A DNA stretch of 64,000 nucleotides. Origin: Actinomycetes bacterium (GTDB lineage: Bacteria; Actinomycetota; Humimicrobiia; Humimicrobiales; Humimicrobiaceae). Position numbers and translations under genes: made by a program. Below the pieces are notes generated by a model, which did not search any database, was not told the DNA's origin, and saw nothing but the letters and a program-made list of their open reading frames with translations. This document shows, piece by piece, positions 47,194 to 52,909 of the stretch; the first letter of the stretch is position 1, and each line of letters begins with the position of its first letter. Where the stretch lies: positions 1,830 through 65,829 of the forward strand of contig JAIOXO010000008.1 in assembly GCA_022396035.1 (NCBI GenBank), given 5' to 3'.

Positions 47194-47455
47194 CCAAGTT
47201 ATTAAAGTTTATGTCCGGCCCGGTTCCTCCGTAGACTGTGTTGATGGATGGTATGGGGAACATATAAAAATAAGATTATCTAAACCACCACAAAAAGGTA
47301 AGGCCAATCAGGCATTAATAGGCCTTATTGCTTCAAAATTAAATTTACCTACCCAGAATGTTGCCATAATATCTGGTAATAAATCAAATTATAAAAAGAT
47401 ACTGATTAAAACCCCCCATAGATCTGACATTATAAGTAAATTACTTAATAGTTAG
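47186..47455 (+). CDS. DUF167 (YggU-like) protein
   Basis: VYVRPGSS, PPQKGKAN and SGNKSNYK. Confidence 0.85.
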   Translation: MNDQVIKVYVRPGSSVDCVDGWYGEHIKIRLSKPPQKGKANQALIGLIASKLNLPTQNVAIISGNKSNYKKILIKTPHRSDIISKLLNS

Positions 47456-47592
47456 TTCAAAAATTTAATGAATTTCTAATTTTATTCAATCTTTGTATCT
47501 TTAAACCATATTATAGCTGATATTATAGTAATAAAAATATATTATAATATATAAAACCAAAAATATATAATAATATAAAAAATTAATCAAAA

Positions 47593-47621
47593 TTGACAAA
47601 TATTAGCTAACTATATATTAT
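47593..47621 (+). promoter_or_regulatory. Putative sigma70 promoter of the accessory islet
   Basis: TTGACA-17-TATTAT in an extremely AT-rich spacer. Confidence 0.55.
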
Positions 47622-47688
47622 AATAACAATAAACTAGTATTAAAAAGTAAGAATTAAATCAATATAAACCATAATATACTATAATAAA

Positions 47689-48717
47689 ATGTACTTTATT
47701 TTATTAATAACCAAAAATAAAGAAGTAGCAAAGAAAGCTAAAAATAGGCATATAAAAAACTTTAATATAATTATTAAAACAGATCAAAACAACATTGAAG
47801 CAATAATACAGGAATATATGCCGAAATATATTATAATAGCTGAAGATTTGCAGAATTTAGATGATTTAAGAGATTATATATCCGATAATACAGATAGTGA
47901 ATTAATAATTGCCGGGAAGAACAAAACACGGTCCGGCTGTATTCAGGTCCAAGAGTTACAGTGTATAGAAGATCTGGACCAGATATTGAATATAATAAGC
48001 AAGCTGGAACAAGAAAAATCGGAATATAAGGTAATTAACCAGCAGGTAACTTCATTATTTTCTGTTCAGGGCGGGGTAGGCAGAACCAATATTGCTTTTA
48101 ATATGGCATACTATCTGGGCAAAGCAAAAAAGCTTGATGTTTTACTGATTGATTTAAATTGCTGCGAAGGTCAAACAGATCTAGCCTATGATTTAAATAT
48201 ACCCAAATACCCCAATATGGGTAAATTTTTACAGGAAACAGAAAATAGTCCACAATCATTATGGGATTCCATAATACCGGTAAAGAAGTTAGGCACAGAT
48301 ATACTTCAGGCGCCTCTAACTATCGAGCAGAGTGACAATATTTCCATAGATATAATTGATGAAATTATTTATAGTGCCAGAAAAAGATATGATTATATAC
48401 TGGTAGATCTACCCCATAATTACCAAAATTATGTATTTGAAATGCTAAATCTTTCCACCAAGATTATCTTCATCTTTACTCCAACCATGGTGGCAACTCA
48501 TAGAATAAATAAATTTTTAAAATTTCTATCCGGACACCAGGATAGAGAGGCTTTATTGAATCAAGCCAATGAGGATGAGGAACAAATAGAATTATTCCAA
48601 CAGCAACTTAATATAAATCTGGCAGGATCAATTCCTAGTATGGAAAAAAGCCATAAGATTAATGGTTTTTTGGATATGCAGCCTCAGTTATCCTGCTTAG
48701 AAAAGATGATTATTTAA
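47689..48717 (+). CDS. CpaE/TadZ/MinD-like ATPase with degenerate Walker A and a receiver-like N-terminus
   Basis: FSVQGGVGRT..AFNMA, VLLIDLN and YDYILVDLP. Confidence 0.7.
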   Translation: MYFILLITKNKEVAKKAKNRHIKNFNIIIKTDQNNIEAIIQEYMPKYIIIAEDLQNLDDLRDYISDNTDSELIIAGKNKTRSGCIQVQELQCIEDLDQILNIISKLEQEKSEYKVINQQVTSLFSVQGGVGRTNIAFNMAYYLGKAKKLDVLLIDLNCCEGQTDLAYDLNIPKYPNMGKFLQETENSPQSLWDSIIPVKKLGTDILQAPLTIEQSDNISIDIIDEIIYSARKRYDYILVDLPHNYQNYVFEMLNLSTKIIFIFTPTMVATHRINKFLKFLSGHQDREALLNQANEDEEQIELFQQQLNINLAGSIPSMEKSHKINGFLDMQPQLSCLEKMII

Positions 48718-48718
48718 T

Positions 48719-49111
48719 ATGGAACAGGAAAAAAAATTATACACCATTAAGGAAGTTTCAGAACTGGTGGGTATAAGTGAATCCGAGATAATAAGGATGG
48801 TAATGTTAAAAAAATTACCAGCTATAAGGCTGGGTAAGGCAATAAGAATAAATGAAAATGATCTGGAGGAGTTCTTAAATAATTTTATAGGCAAAGAGGA
48901 GCTTGCCGGTAAATCTGAAGAGGAGGCTCCAGTACTATATACTGCAGAACAGGTAGCAAAAATATTGAAATTGTCGGTGGATAATATATGGAATCTTTTA
49001 AAAACCGGAGAATTAAAGGGATTTAAAATCAGAGAAGGAAGAAGCTCCTGGAGGATTCCACAGGGCAGTATTGAAGAGTTCATTGAGAGAAGAACCCAGA
49101 AGAGCGTATAG
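48719..49111 (+). CDS. Tandem HTH_17 (excisionase/BldC-like) DNA-binding protein
   Basis: Two repeats: LYTIKEVSELVGIS...LPAIRLGKAIRI and LYTAEQVAKILKLS...LKGFKI...WRIP. Confidence 0.8.
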   Translation: MEQEKKLYTIKEVSELVGISESEIIRMVMLKKLPAIRLGKAIRINENDLEEFLNNFIGKEELAGKSEEEAPVLYTAEQVAKILKLSVDNIWNLLKTGELKGFKIREGRSSWRIPQGSIEEFIERRTQKSV

Positions 49112-49118
49112 GGGAAAA

Positions 49119-49277
49119 ATGAAGGGGGAAGGACAGAAAAAAAAGAGCCTTACTTTTTGGGAGAAGGCATCAATTCTAATAATAATTTTTTTAATAATTG
49201 TGATACTGGTACTGATTTTTTACCAACAATTAATGGAGTATCTTGAAATTTTAAAAGCCTGGTATGAGAGTGGTTAG
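49119..49277 (+). CDS. 52-aa single-TM protein with type IV/Flp prepilin-like N-terminus
   Basis: SD GGGG/AGGGG. Basic leader MKGEGQKKKS, then LTFWE (Glu at +5) and a long hydrophobic helix. Confidence 0.55.
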   Translation: MKGEGQKKKSLTFWEKASILIIIFLIIVILVLIFYQQLMEYLEILKAWYESG

Positions 49278-49313
49278 CAAGAAGATAAAGTTTTTAAGAG
49301 GAGGTGAAATAAA

Positions 49314-49385
49314 GTGAAAAAGTTAATGAGAGTATTGATCGCGCTAGGTTCATTAGTAGGTATTTGCTCTACAGTAAGATGGTAG
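49314..49385 (+). CDS. 23-aa peptide MKKLMRVLIALGSLVGICSTVRW (copy 1)
   Basis: SD GGAGGTG 7 nt before the GTG start; TAG stop. Basic-hydrophobic-Trp architecture. Below the ORF-track cutoff. Confidence 0.65.
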   Translation: MKKLMRVLIALGSLVGICSTVRW

Positions 49386-49427
49386 AAAAAAGAAGAAAGT
49401 TCTATTAAGAAAGGAAGGTGAAATAAA

Positions 49428-49499
49428 GTGAAAAAGTTAATGAGAGTATTGATCGCGCTAGGTTCATTAGTAGGTATTTGCTCTACAGTAAGATGGTAG
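49428..49499 (+). CDS. 23-aa peptide MKKLMRVLIALGSLVGICSTVRW (copy 2)
   Basis: Own SD (AAGGAAGGTG) and a coding sequence identical to copy 1. Confidence 0.65.
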   Translation: MKKLMRVLIALGSLVGICSTVRW

Positions 49500-49525
49500 A
49501 AAAATTATATTAAATCGCCTTGTTT

Positions 49526-49534
49526 TGGTATAAT
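49526..49534 (+). promoter_or_regulatory. Extended -10 promoter (TGgTATAAT) upstream of the HD-GYP gene
   Basis: Perfect TGnTATAAT about 30 nt before the GTG at 49564. Confidence 0.55.
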
Positions 49535-49563
49535 TTTTTATATTTGAACTAAAAGGGAAATTA

Positions 49564-50802
49564 GTGAGCAATACTAAAAAGTTGATTTTACAGGTTTATG
49601 TTCATGCTGTCTTTATAATTGGCATATTCTTGCTATCATTGGTGATTATAAAGTATAGCAATGTTTCCTTGGTGGGAGTGGTGCTGTTCGGGTTTCTGGT
49701 ATTTGCATCAGACAATCTATCATCACCACTCCCCAAAACTGGCAGTGTATCAGTTAATTTTGGTATAACTATGGCCAGCTTAATTCTATTTGGTCCAGCT
49801 ACTGCCAGTATAGTTACCATAATATCTGTGTTCAATATTAAGGAATTTTTAAAGAAGGTTCCCTACTATAAACATCTCTTCAATGCGGGTCAGTACCTTA
49901 TATCCATAGGGGTGGCCAGCATAGTTTTTGAAGCTTTATTCAACCGGTCTGTTGGTAATTTTCTTTCTTTAAATAATATTGGAGTAATTTTTCTTTCTGC
50001 CATTATTTTCTTTTTTTTAAATACTACTTTGACTACAGGTGCTATAACCCTGAGTGAATCGGCAGGATTTTTAAATATCTGGGTTTTCAATTTTGCCTGG
50101 CTTACTCCTTTTCATATATTCTTAACTCTAATGGCGGTTGCCATATCTTTCCTATATTCTACTTATGGGCCTTTTACCCTGCTTTTTACATCATTGCCCT
50201 TGATAATAGCCCAGTATACTTATCTTTTAAGGATAAAAGAGAGAAAAGCCCTGTTAAGCAGTATTTTACAGATAGTAAAGATAATGGAGGCCAAAGATGT
50301 TTATACTGCCAGCCATTCCATGAGAGTGGCTACTTATAGTGAAGAGATAGCCAGGGAAATGAAATTAAATGAATACGATGTTGAAATAATTAGAAACCTC
50401 GCCAATCTGCATGATATAGGAAAGATTCAGGTTGATTTGTCTATATTAAATAAACCAGCTGAATTAAGCCGGCAGGATTGGGAAGAGGTTAAAAAACATC
50501 CAGAAGTGGGTTATGAGATAGTAAAAGAGATAACCTTTTTAAAAGATGCTGCTTCTGGAATACTTTATCACCATGAAAAAGTTGACGGCAGTGGGTATCC
50601 GAGAGGATTAACGGGAGACCAGATACCTTTATTTGCTAAAATTTTGTGTGTAGCAGATTCCTATGATGCTATGACTACTGACCGGCCCTATACCAGGGCA
50701 TTGACCAAACAAGAGGCCATAGGGGAATTAAGGAGAAACTCGGGGACTCAGTTTGATGGAGAAGTTACCGAGGCTATGGTAAAGGTATTAGCCAGGCAAT
50801 AA
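49564..50802 (+). CDS. Membrane-integral HD-GYP domain protein (putative c-di-GMP phosphodiesterase with a multi-TM sensor)
   Basis: About 7 TM helices in the first ~220 aa, then HSMRV, LHDIGKI, HPEVG, HHEKVDGSGYP and ADSYDAMTTDRPY. Confidence 0.88.
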   Translation: MSNTKKLILQVYVHAVFIIGIFLLSLVIIKYSNVSLVGVVLFGFLVFASDNLSSPLPKTGSVSVNFGITMASLILFGPATASIVTIISVFNIKEFLKKVPYYKHLFNAGQYLISIGVASIVFEALFNRSVGNFLSLNNIGVIFLSAIIFFFLNTTLTTGAITLSESAGFLNIWVFNFAWLTPFHIFLTLMAVAISFLYSTYGPFTLLFTSLPLIIAQYTYLLRIKERKALLSSILQIVKIMEAKDVYTASHSMRVATYSEEIAREMKLNEYDVEIIRNLANLHDIGKIQVDLSILNKPAELSRQDWEEVKKHPEVGYEIVKEITFLKDAASGILYHHEKVDGSGYPRGLTGDQIPLFAKILCVADSYDAMTTDRPYTRALTKQEAIGELRRNSGTQFDGEVTEAMVKVLARQ

Positions 50803-50804
50803 GC

Positions 50805-51326
50805 ATGGATAGAGGTTACTATAAAATATTAGGTTTAACCATTGCCCTGCTGGCAGCAGGAGCTGTTGTGGGTTATCTGTTCTTTTATTTTTTAAAAGAA
50901 CCTTCTGTGTTTATTATTGATAAATTTAAAGTATTGCAGGGCTTCTTCGGTATCCGGGAATATGATCAGGACATGACTCTGGTTTATACACTGATTATTA
51001 TTTTTTTTGGAAACCTTTTGTCTACTCTTGGCTACCTGGGTTTGGGTTACCTGAAAGCCAGCCTTCCCCTAGCTTTTATTACCGGATTCTTTATTATAAT
51101 ATTTCTGTTCTCTGGTACAATCCGGCATGCACAGAGCATTCCTGCAGATGTTATTTTGCTGGTTTCAGTAGAAACTGTTTACAGAATGCTTATGCTAAGT
51201 TATGGAGAGTACTGGGCAACCTATAAAAATAGAAATAAACCGCTGGCTTATGCTTTAATATCCATTACAGCGGTTTTATTTCTATTTGGAATTGGTTTCG
51301 AGGTTTACTCTATTTTTTACTTATAA
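50805..51326 (+). CDS. Membrane protein, distantly SpoIIM/DUF95-like
   Basis: 173 aa, 4-5 TM. IIIFFGNL and a Glu inside a TM helix (SVETVY). Starts 2 nt after the HD-GYP stop. Confidence 0.55.
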   Translation: MDRGYYKILGLTIALLAAGAVVGYLFFYFLKEPSVFIIDKFKVLQGFFGIREYDQDMTLVYTLIIIFFGNLLSTLGYLGLGYLKASLPLAFITGFFIIIFLFSGTIRHAQSIPADVILLVSVETVYRMLMLSYGEYWATYKNRNKPLAYALISITAVLFLFGIGFEVYSIFYL

Positions 51327-51330
51327 TATA

Positions 51331-51359
51331 ACAGGCCACTAGTAATATTAGCGGCCTGT
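51331..51359. terminator. Hairpin between convergent genes (probable bidirectional terminator)
   Basis: ACAGGCCACTA-GTAATAT-TAGCGGCCTGT: 11-bp stem, fully paired with a G-U on the minus strand. Confidence 0.75.
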
Positions 51360-51367
51360 CTGAGTAT

Positions 51368-52909
51368 TTATATTTCAGCCAACTTATCAAAAGTTGGTTT
51401 AAGGGTCGGGTACAGGCTCTTGTAAACCTCAAATAACCCTTCATAGATTTTTTTATTGGATTTGTCGGGAAGAAGTTCGGTTTCTGTTTTTATGACTTCA
51501 GTAGCCTGTTCAACAGTGTCCCAGATACCACATCCGGTTCCGGCAACCAGGGCTGCACCATAAGCACCGCCTTCCTTGCTTCCGCTAACTGTTTTTACCG
51601 GGAGCTGGAATATGTCTGCCAGCATCTGTCTCCACAGCTTGCTTGACGATCCTCCCCCGGATACCCTGATTTCTTTAGCTTTTAAATTGGTATCCATTTC
51701 TGTCATCAGTTCATAAATCTGCTTCTGGCTGAAAGTAACTCCTTCCATAACGCTCCTGGCAAAATCTTCATGGTTATGTCTAAGGGTAACTCCAATGAAC
51801 ACTCCTGAAGCATTAGGATCAGGGTAGGGACATCTTTCACCTATAAGGTAGGGCAGGAAAACCAATCCTTTACTACCAGGTTCAGATTCTTTTTCCACCG
51901 CTTCATCAATTATTTTGTAAACATCCTGATCTGTTTCTTGGGCAATTTTATTTTCAAATCTACACAACTTATTCTTAAACCACTGGAATGATCCTCCTGC
52001 AGCCAGGGTTACGCCCATAATATTCCACTTATTAGGAGCATTACTGCAGAACACCTGGAAATTACCGGTATGGTTAAAAGTATAATTATTAAGCCCCATG
52101 GAAGTGACCCCGGCTGTACCCAGGGTAATTCCCAGTATACCTTCAATTATCAGGCCGGTACCTGTAGTCTGGATAACCGCATCTCCTCCGCCACCGGCGA
52201 CCGGTACTGATTTGGGGAGGCCGGTCTGTTCAGAGGCTTCTCCGGTTAAGTGTCCGGTAATTTCGGGAGATTCATAAGCCTGGGGGAGCAGCTCCAGCGG
52301 TATATCCAGTATCTCTAACAGTTCCTGGCTCCACTTTCTGTTCTTAACATCAAATAAGCCGGTTCCAGAAGCATCAGATACTTCGGTGGCAAATTCGCCG
52401 GTAAGCCTGAATCTGATATAATCTTTAGGATTTAAGAATATTACTGATTGTTTGTAGTGCTGGGGCTCTTCTTGCTTCAGCCATAAGATTTTCCCCCCGG
52501 TATATCCAGGCAGCATGCTATTGTTAGTGTATTTCAGCAGCTCCTTTTTGCCCCCTACTGCTTTATAGATATCCTGGCATTGCTTATGTGATCGTTGATC
52601 ATTCCACAGGTAAGCGGGCCTTACTACCTGATGGCCTTTGTCCAGGGCTACCAGGCCATGCATTTGGCCGGATAAACCAATGCCCTTTACTGCCTGGGGG
52701 TTTACCCCGCTTTTTTCCATTATTATTCGTATGGTTTTTGCAGTAGCTTTCCACCAGTCATCCGGGTTTTGCTCTGCCCATCCCGGCTTGGGGGTATAAA
52801 GGGGATATTCTTCCATAGCCGAGGCAATAACCTTTCCGGTGCTGTCTATTAAAATAGACTTACAGCCTGAGGTCCCGATATCGGTACCGATAATATATTG
52901 TTCTTGCAT
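51368..52909 (-). CDS. xylB: Xylulokinase-type FGGY carbohydrate kinase
   Basis: GTDIGTSG, GWAEQNP, GLSGQMHG, LWND, DASGT, GGGD, PYLIGERCP and SGGG. Confidence 0.8.
   Translation of the reverse strand: MQEQYIIGTDIGTSGCKSILIDSTGKVIASAMEEYPLYTPKPGWAEQNPDDWWKATAKTIRIIMEKSGVNPQAVKGIGLSGQMHGLVALDKGHQVVRPAYLWNDQRSHKQCQDIYKAVGGKKELLKYTNNSMLPGYTGGKILWLKQEEPQHYKQSVIFLNPKDYIRFRLTGEFATEVSDASGTGLFDVKNRKWSQELLEILDIPLELLPQAYESPEITGHLTGEASEQTGLPKSVPVAGGGGDAVIQTTGTGLIIEGILGITLGTAGVTSMGLNNYTFNHTGNFQVFCSNAPNKWNIMGVTLAAGGSFQWFKNKLCRFENKIAQETDQDVYKIIDEAVEKESEPGSKGLVFLPYLIGERCPYPDPNASGVFIGVTLRHNHEDFARSVMEGVTFSQKQIYELMTEMDTNLKAKEIRVSGGGSSSKLWRQMLADIFQLPVKTVSGSKEGGAYGAALVAGTGCGIWDTVEQATEVIKTETELLPDKSNKKIYEGLFEVYKSLYPTLKPTFDKLAEI

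Follow-up and report, generated by a model that had tools for sequence, protein, structure and literature searches.

A conserved two-unit gene block behind divIVA in a Humimicrobiia-like actinobacterial lineage, with a TadZ-like ATPase, a micro-protein and a MASE9-HD-GYP phosphodiesterase

The 64,000-nucleotide (nt) stretch of contig JAIOXO010000008.1 (assembly GCA_022396035.1) analyzed here, hereafter the window, to which all coordinates refer unless labelled otherwise, carries behind its cell-division cluster a block of seven co-oriented open reading frames (ORFs) on the + strand. These encode a ParA/MinD-like, TadZ-like ATPase, a tandem helix-turn-helix (HTH) DNA-binding protein, a 52-aa membrane protein, a 23-aa micro-protein in two copies, a membrane phosphodiesterase of the MASE9-HD-GYP type and an orphan membrane protein of 173 aa. 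A first-pass annotation had listed seven co-oriented ORFs, all of which are present, and had recognized no named system in their combination; this still holds: the gene block is conserved, and no published description of it was found. The literature searched describes neither such a locus nor a micro-protein that partners an HD-GYP enzyme, and has nothing on either in Humimicrobiia. The component parts are all of known kinds, and it is their conserved assembly that is new. As an appendix to the dcw/divIVA (division and cell wall) cluster, the block has been inherited vertically and is confined to one lineage; in it, the trio of ATPase, HTH protein and 52-aa protein forms a constant core, and the micro-protein and HD-GYP genes, together with that of the 173-aa protein where present, form an optional part that is lost as one piece.

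The evidence for vertical inheritance is the constancy of the locus among relatives, whose contigs and genomes are labelled L001 onward (L001, GCA_034520345.1, is a 96% relative of the window). In more than 45 species-level metagenome-assembled genomes (MAGs) of a Humimicrobiia-like actinobacterial lineage, ftsZ-sepF-yggT-divIVA-DUF167 precede the same gene order, which runs from the dcw genes through divIVA-DUF167 to the ATPase, the double HTH protein, the small membrane protein, the peptide or peptides, the HD-GYP enzyme and the membrane protein. Six contigs show this order after the dcw cluster at ATPase identities from 96% down to 34%. A scan with the HTH alignment against one genome per GTDB species returned 45 genomes, titled 'Candidatus Humimicrobiaceae' or unclassified Actinomycetota, and the HTH gene lies behind sepF...divIVA-DUF167 in every one of them with enough upstream sequence. 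An independent scan of metagenome contigs, with the 173-aa protein as the probe, found the full block in 10 of 10 informative loci. The ATPase has 18 strong homologue clusters among 5.8 billion proteins, the few with a named source being Actinomycetota MAGs. A tblastn search of a plasmid collection with the HTH protein gave only unrelated single-HTH matches, and two distant genome matches (L053 and L054) lie in unrelated contexts. Comparison of synteny had been proposed as a check on chance juxtaposition, and its outcome is divided: the block is conserved and not a product of chance, but the trio also stands without peptide, HD-GYP gene and membrane partner in nine genomes.

The block had also been described as an islet, visibly more AT-rich than the dcw genes. 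The difference in composition is real, with a GC content of 0.335 in the block, 0.394 in the dcw stretch and 0.401 in the whole window, and the block falls in the lowest 2% of equal-sized windows. Low GC is found in yggT (0.295) and DUF167 (0.337) as well, and the GC content at third codon positions of the block genes (0.31-0.37) overlaps with the low values of yggT (0.27) and DUF167 (0.27). Because low GC is common to yggT and DUF167, composition gives no sign of import. Hence the islet claim fails, as the block is inherited vertically behind divIVA-DUF167 in more than 45 species. The patchy presence, variable context and odd composition of a horizontally acquired islet were looked for and not found, the position being fixed in all loci, and horizontal transfer of the block was likewise rejected in view of its invariant place behind divIVA-DUF167.

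Two units can be distinguished. Unit A (47593-49277) comprises the ATPase, the tandem HTH_17 protein and the 52-aa protein, and is present in every genome except for one MAG without the ATPase. Unit B (49314-51326) comprises one to three micro-protein copies, the MASE9-HD-GYP enzyme and the 173-aa membrane protein, and is cleanly missing at the locus in nine genomes that keep the trio (L031-L033, L035, L036, L038, and L040-L042). In these genomes the convergent glycosyltransferase (GT2) gene that normally comes after the 173-aa gene directly follows the trio. On a tree built from SepF, DivIVA, DUF167, the ATPase and the HTH protein, the trio-only state must have arisen at least four to five times independently within a clade whose remaining members carry the full block, and the loss in L031 is very recent. 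The locus is thus two units and not one obligate pathway, because the trio persists after unit B losses. Within unit B, the peptide is present wherever the HD-GYP gene is present and absent wherever it is absent, bar one decayed copy in L027, and a peptide gene was never seen without an HD-GYP gene. In the basal clade (L047, L048 and L050), the trio is accompanied by a 20-aa peptide form, MARFFKLIFSLVGLGSTVRW, and the HD-GYP gene, with no 173-aa protein. The fate of the peptide tracks that of the HD-GYP gene, and neither that of the trio nor that of the 173-aa protein. The peptide-HD-GYP link that had been suggested earlier is borne out by this shared presence and joint disappearance, the L027 copy aside.

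The two micro-protein genes of the window (49314-49385 and 49428-49499, + strand) encode the same 23-aa product, MKKLMRVLIALGSLVGICSTVRW, the first from a GTG start, and each is preceded by the Shine-Dalgarno sequence GGAGGTGA. Each lies in its own copy of an 89-nt repeat; the two copies are 100% identical, at a spacing of 114 nt, and this duplication was found by a repeat search and missed by Tandem Repeats Finder. More than 40 loci yielded 38 distinct variants, in one to three copies per relative, that follow the pattern M-[KR]-K-(hydrophobic)2-[RK]-[IV]-L-(hydrophobic)2-L-[GA]-S-L-[IV]-G-I-[CA]-x-x-[VI]-[RK]-W, with a hypervariable residue 20 and, in many variants, Ala in place of the Cys. 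Of the codon differences between relatives, 450 are synonymous and 339 non-synonymous (57% synonymous), a pattern that indicates constraint on the coding sequence of the peptide. A strong, exposed Shine-Dalgarno sequence is conserved in front of every copy. None of the public records inspected annotates the peptide genes, which are a clear example of missed micro-protein genes. A lipoprotein signal peptide was considered and rejected, given that the Cys required for a lipobox is not conserved, and an Agr-type cyclic peptide was rejected because the residue needed for cyclization varies (C or A). The conserved block encodes no RRNPP or histidine kinase receptor, processing protease or exporter for a pheromone system.

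RNA from the locus was found in four salt-lake metatranscriptomes that contain a close relative of L002, compared to L002 at ≥95% identity. Over 6.4 kb of L002, RNA covers almost only the peptide array and a stretch into the start of the HD-GYP gene. In run X13, contig depth, a crude measure of expression, is 72-76 over the peptide array (57-76 in a wider range), 5.2 over yggT and 2.6 at the ATPase/HTH junction. One contig of depth 73, unique and free of repeats, starts at the stop codon of the last peptide gene and reaches 74 nt into the HD-GYP ORF, and RNA contigs from the array also read through the HD-GYP promoter. Uniform DNA carry-over would not leave the remainder of the 6.4 kb with hardly any coverage, which argues against it as the source of the peptide-array signal. 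As depth is so crude, our claim is limited to an abundant peptide RNA that continues into the 5' end of the HD-GYP gene, although by depth it is by far the most abundant RNA of the locus. Abundant RNA contigs at L002:3555-3730 (corresponding to 49500-49680) cross the HD-GYP promoter and end 75-110 nt into the HD-GYP ORF; they may represent a short stable transcript or an attenuation point.

The HD-GYP protein (412 aa, 49564-50802, + strand) matches Pfam HD_5 with E 1.4e-36 (126 bits, cut-off 27.2) and, N-terminal to this domain, MASE9 (PF20972; 37.0 bits, cut-off 24.3) over residues 31-218. Its LHDIGK and HHEKVDGSGYP motifs are intact here and conserved in all relatives aligned, so that by its motifs and domains it is a predicted phosphodiesterase of cyclic di-GMP (c-di-GMP) with a MASE9 sensor. 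MASE9 is predicted to bind a ligand within the membrane (Galperin and Chou, 10.1101/2021.11.05.467447), and this half of the protein is 59-97% identical among the 120 homologues listed, all from the same lineage. Upstream lies an extended -10 promoter, TGgTATAAT, with a TATATTT box (49526-49545, + strand), and the arrangement TGnTATAAT-N4-5-TATATTT is nearly invariant upstream of the HD-GYP gene in 25 aligned loci. Because of this conservation, the HD-GYP gene probably has its own promoter in addition to upstream read-through.

The 173-aa polytopic membrane protein (50805-51326, + strand), whose gene starts 2 nt after the HD-GYP stop, matches nothing in Pfam or NCBIfam, and relaxing the threshold to E≤10 for six members of its family did not change this. 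Among 5.8 billion proteins it makes up 20 clusters, and when 1.84 billion representatives were searched exhaustively with its profile, 11 proteins matched, all of the same orphan family. The label 'SpoIIM-like' has to be dropped, since PF01944 does not match at E≤10 and the profile search recovered nothing but the orphan family. The AlphaFold2 model has five transmembrane (TM) helices at a mean confidence (pLDDT) of only 62. Two distant homologues on short contigs (L072:128-691 and L073:1050-1709) keep the motifs GN.LST...G and RHG...E..YR, and follow a gene for a major facilitator superfamily-like transporter instead of the HD-GYP gene, a context of little weight on contigs of this length.

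The first gene of the trio encodes a ParA/MinD-like ATPase of 342 aa (47689-48717, + strand; Pfam AAA_31, E 3e-10). Its AlphaFold2 model (pLDDT 85) has as its top Foldseek match the structure 3FKQ, covering both domains over 376 columns (E 4.7e-13) and followed by 3EA0, MinD and FlhG. In the model, an N-terminal pseudo-receiver, whose acidic residues are not conserved, precedes a ParA/MinD ATPase domain, a predicted architecture that agrees with the fold of TadZ/CpaE. PMC10499894, which cites Xu et al. (2012, PMC3272108), gives 3FKQ as E. rectale TadZ. By sequence the kinship is distant, as TadZ_N (PF16968) does not match at E≤0.1 and the Ssd model TIGR03815 scores 23.1 bits (cut-off 154.45). 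Outside the lineage, the proteins closest in sequence (28% identity) are true TadZ proteins encoded in complete tad loci, where no HTH partner accompanies them. The first-pass annotation had called the protein a pseudo-ATPase. This is apt for the window and its 96% relative L001, where the P-loop reads QGGVGRT and the deviant Walker A pattern KGGxGK[ST], with signature and Walker lysine, is absent. It does not extend to the family, since most genomes have QGGVGKT and the canonical KGGTGKT is kept, only in the basal clade, by the genes at L047:6910-8004, L048:6907-7998 and L050:6910-8004. The series reads as a stepwise decay of the P-loop, and the pseudo-ATPase appears to be a recent, local state, not a family trait.

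The promoter of unit A that had been claimed at 47593 was confirmed as the best consensus match in the region (TTGACA-17-TATTAT, 47593-47621, + strand, 11 of 12 positions), and a TTGACA -35 with a TATTAT or TATCAT -10 is conserved 5' of the ATPase gene in 26 relatives. It lies in a 233-nt gap (47456-47688) with a GC content of 0.129. The start region of the ATPase gene (47670-47691, ACTATAATAAAATG) has no recognizable Shine-Dalgarno sequence behind a 5' leader of about 70 nt, and those of the peptide genes are very strong; translation of the ATPase is likely to be weak.

One nucleotide after the ATPase stop begins the gene for the 130-aa DNA-binding protein (48719-49111, + strand), which Pfam HTH_17, an excisionase/MerR-like module, matches in two stretches (E 9e-28), as TIGR01764 also does twice. 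Between relatives, this protein keeps an identity of 75-83% where that of the ATPases drops to 34-56%, a degree of conservation that implies several surfaces under probable constraint. A candidate operator was sought in 26 loci by counting direct repeats of (T)TAAC(C) in the 60-nt stretch that precedes the TTGACA element of the unit A promoter. At spacings of 10 or 20 bp, 41 were observed in relatives, whereas shuffled sequences gave 11.9 ± 3.3 and a control region downstream gave 10; as these sequences are related, the count is a lead only, and so is the assignment of the repeats as a putative operator for the tandem HTH protein. Examples are found in L014, L029, L034, L036, L041 and L006. 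The window has a 26-nt tandem repeat at 47524-47582, upstream of unit A.

The third gene of the trio encodes a single-pass membrane protein of 52 aa (49119-49277, + strand), and its start at 49119 agrees with an ORF of 50-54 aa that is conserved at this position in relatives. The protein has a basic N-terminus, a WEK motif, a TM helix, and a conserved C-terminal ...K.WY. It had been described as pilin-like, which cannot be upheld: Pfam and NCBIfam give no Flp_Fap or N_methyl match, relatives have L, F or P, and not Gly, at position -1 before the TM segment, and no Peptidase_A24 gene lies at the locus in relatives. The link to a pilus, for which the remaining tad genes were to be located, is not supported either. 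No tadA/B/C, flp or prepilin peptidase gene was found within ±10 kb in the window or in more than 40 relatives' loci, nor was tadV in the window or in L001-L007, and the ATPase remains below the TadZ_N and Ssd cut-offs. Motif expressions run over all ORFs of the window detected no GGDEF protein and no prepilin.

Taken together, we favor, with moderate confidence, a mechanism in which a DivIVA-associated positioning trio stands beside an intramembrane micro-protein that tunes c-di-GMP hydrolysis. This proposal draws on gene content, conservation, synteny, the co-loss of unit B, peptide RNA and intact motifs. In unit A, the TadZ-derived ATPase, the HTH protein and the 52-aa protein would act together with DivIVA at poles or septa, as a module for positioning or scaffolding. 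The HTH protein would bind DNA, probably regulating its own unit at direct repeats, and the 52-aa protein would tether the complex to the membrane as its anchor. With its QGGVGRT P-loop, the ATPase of this genome might stay bound to its nucleotide, hydrolyze little or none of it, and serve as a scaffold. In unit B, the micro-protein would insert in the membrane and pack its small-residue face (G/A12-S13...G16) against the MASE9 transmembrane bundle. By analogy with the logic of MgrB and PhoQ, this packing would set the c-di-GMP phosphodiesterase activity of the HD-GYP domain, with the 173-aa protein as a possible accessory partner.

Several observations weigh against this mechanism. Neither pairing is absolute, because L024 lacks the ATPase and the peptide is decayed in L027. 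In L027 (8560-8650), the only such case seen, the start and several codons of the peptide gene are gone and the HD-GYP and 173-aa genes are intact. In L024 (7632-8001), no ATPase gene lies between DUF167 and the HTH gene, and the promoter, HTH gene, small protein, peptide, HD-GYP gene and membrane protein are kept; either the gene has truly been deleted or the assembly is at fault. No TAAC repeats are found in the promoter region of the window itself. Unit B may have relocated elsewhere in the trio-only genomes, its loss being read at the locus, and a tad locus may lie elsewhere in the genome, its absence covering ±10 kb. The RNA runs come from relatives of L002 and not from this organism, and depth is crude as an index of expression. 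The structure predictions are of single chains and the organisms are uncultured. It should also be noted that the protein-protein and protein-DNA contacts, the direction of regulation and the cellular output are steps that we infer.

Other explanations of the locus have been weighed. The original proposal was that a secreted peptide acts as a density signal to the membrane HD-GYP protein, and through c-di-GMP to a Tad/Flp pilus by way of the CpaE-like ATPase and a pilin-like protein. The peptide does have the format of SHP/XIP-type pheromone precursors (a basic N-terminus, a hydrophobic body and 20-24 aa), its copy number varies, and a hypervariable residue 20 within an otherwise conserved sequence is what pherotype residues display; the fold of the ATPase resembles that of TadZ, and the homologues closest to it beyond the lineage are in real tad loci. 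We nevertheless regard the proposal as very unlikely, since the 52-aa protein does not have the features of a pilin, no tad, flp or prepilin-peptidase gene is found within ±10 kb in more than 40 loci, the block encodes no exporter, processing protease or RRNPP-type receptor, the Cys of the peptide is not conserved, and the persistence of the trio where peptide and HD-GYP gene are lost indicates that neither half depends on the other as in an obligate chain. Tandem genes for small hydrophobic peptides, with variable copy number and abundant RNA, also recall ibs/ldr-type loci, and the 23-aa peptides might be type I toxin-like or autonomous membrane peptides that lie upstream of the HD-GYP gene by chance. 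Chance is hard to reconcile with their strict co-occurrence with the HD-GYP gene and at least four independent joint losses, or with their fixed position and orientation inside the operon, and the conserved, strong, exposed Shine-Dalgarno sequences and the continuity of the RNA into the HD-GYP gene argue in the same direction. An Rfam scan of 47300-51500 gave nothing relevant, neither an antisense RNA nor another family, and this explanation appears highly improbable.

Two further explanations concern unit A. It could be a detached TadZ with a DNA-binder that serves a Tad locus elsewhere, in which case its place behind divIVA would be meaningless. The fold indeed matches that of TadZ, but the position behind divIVA-DUF167 is invariant across a class-level lineage and comes with a conserved promoter of its own, TadZ_N does not match, the Ssd model TIGR03815 reaches 23 bits against 154, and the true TadZ loci inspected have no HTH_17 partner, so that we consider it rather unlikely. 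Alternatively, ATPase and HTH protein could be a partition pair of ParA and centromere-binding protein, with the AT-rich upstream repeats being centromere-like and the link to c-di-GMP incidental. A ParA-fold ATPase translationally coupled to a small DNA-binding protein, behind upstream direct repeats (26-nt in the window, TAAC in relatives), is the arrangement of type Ib par loci. However, the N-terminal domain is a pseudo-receiver of TadZ type and not the HTH of ParA type Ia, a membrane protein is the invariant third member, and the loss of the signature lysine in most of the lineage, and here of the Walker lysine too, is hard to fit to an ATP-cycling motor. A partition function seems distinctly unlikely to us.

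If the favored mechanism of a DivIVA-associated trio and a micro-protein acting on MASE9 is true, it provides a concrete partner for a MASE-type sensor and a micro-protein layer in c-di-GMP control. It would also mean that a pilus-localization ATPase (TadZ) has been recruited to the cell-division neighborhood in a deep-branching actinobacterial class, where the much stronger conservation of its DNA-binding partner hints at a positioning system not yet described, in bacteria that, with no search made for Min genes, seem to have no obvious Min components. There is a small chance of a bolder version, in which the peptide is the native intramembrane ligand of MASE9, as a micro-protein in cis or a hydrophobic signal in trans with residue 20 as strain specificity, and would couple envelope state or density via the TadZ-derived trio to c-di-GMP and division-site control in an actinobacterial class. 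We know of no ligand for MASE-type sensors, and if this version is true, the peptide would be the first for any of them.

The surroundings of the block are of ordinary kinds. Upstream lies a division cluster of the standard Gram-positive type, with ylmD, yggS, sepF, proC, yggT, divIVA and DUF167. In the whole locus of L001, murB, ddl, ylmD and an aldehyde dehydrogenase are each called as two pieces, divIVA is uncalled, and the 52-aa gene is disrupted by a shorter A-run; these broken genes look like homopolymer sequencing errors in the assembly, not biology. Downstream, the hairpin that had been claimed at 51331 is indeed a stable fold (51331-51359, -18.8 kcal/mol, z = -3.6, equalled in stability by 1 of 200 shuffles), placed between the convergent genes for the membrane protein and a xylulokinase-like protein. 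A strict terminator scan did not detect it; it is probably a bidirectional terminator.

Each part of the block can be compared with a known system. The HD-GYP enzyme shares its domain architecture with the MASE9-HD-GYP proteins TM1467 of T. maritima and HdgA of S. venezuelae, with catalytic motifs intact here (10.1101/2021.11.05.467447), but it has conserved micro-protein and orphan membrane-protein neighbors, neither of which is described for the known ones, and a division-cluster site. Like TadZ/CpaE, the ATPase combines an atypical receiver with a MinD/ParA-like ATPase domain that has a deviant Walker A; unlike them, it stands outside a tad locus, has no TadZ_N match and an identity of about 28% or lower, and has constant partners behind divIVA in the tandem HTH_17 protein and the 52-aa membrane protein. 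Ssd (Rv3660c), named septum site-determining protein, is likewise an actinobacterial TadZ/CpaE-like ATPase, and since it has been linked experimentally to septation, it is a precedent for a division role of this fold (PMC3095998), although Ssd is found in a mycobacterial tad-like locus and the ATPase here scores below the TIGR03815 cut-off. The HTH protein is made of the same small MerR-like/excisionase winged-HTH module as BldC and Xis-type proteins of HTH_17, and the candidate direct repeats upstream recall the head-to-tail binding of BldC to direct repeats (PMC5859096). It differs in having two modules in one chain and other genomic partners, and no PDB sequence match to BldC was obtained at E≤1. 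Finally, MgrB-PhoQ and SmeA-SffA of Streptomyces are like the present arrangement in that a single-helix peptide of about 20-50 aa is encoded beside, and co-inherited with, a sensor or an ATPase, and SmeA-SffA, cited in PMC6428758, is also a precedent for the model of unit A. There is no sequence relationship to either pair, and the proposed target here would be a phosphodiesterase of c-di-GMP; the literature searched reports no regulator of this kind for such an enzyme.

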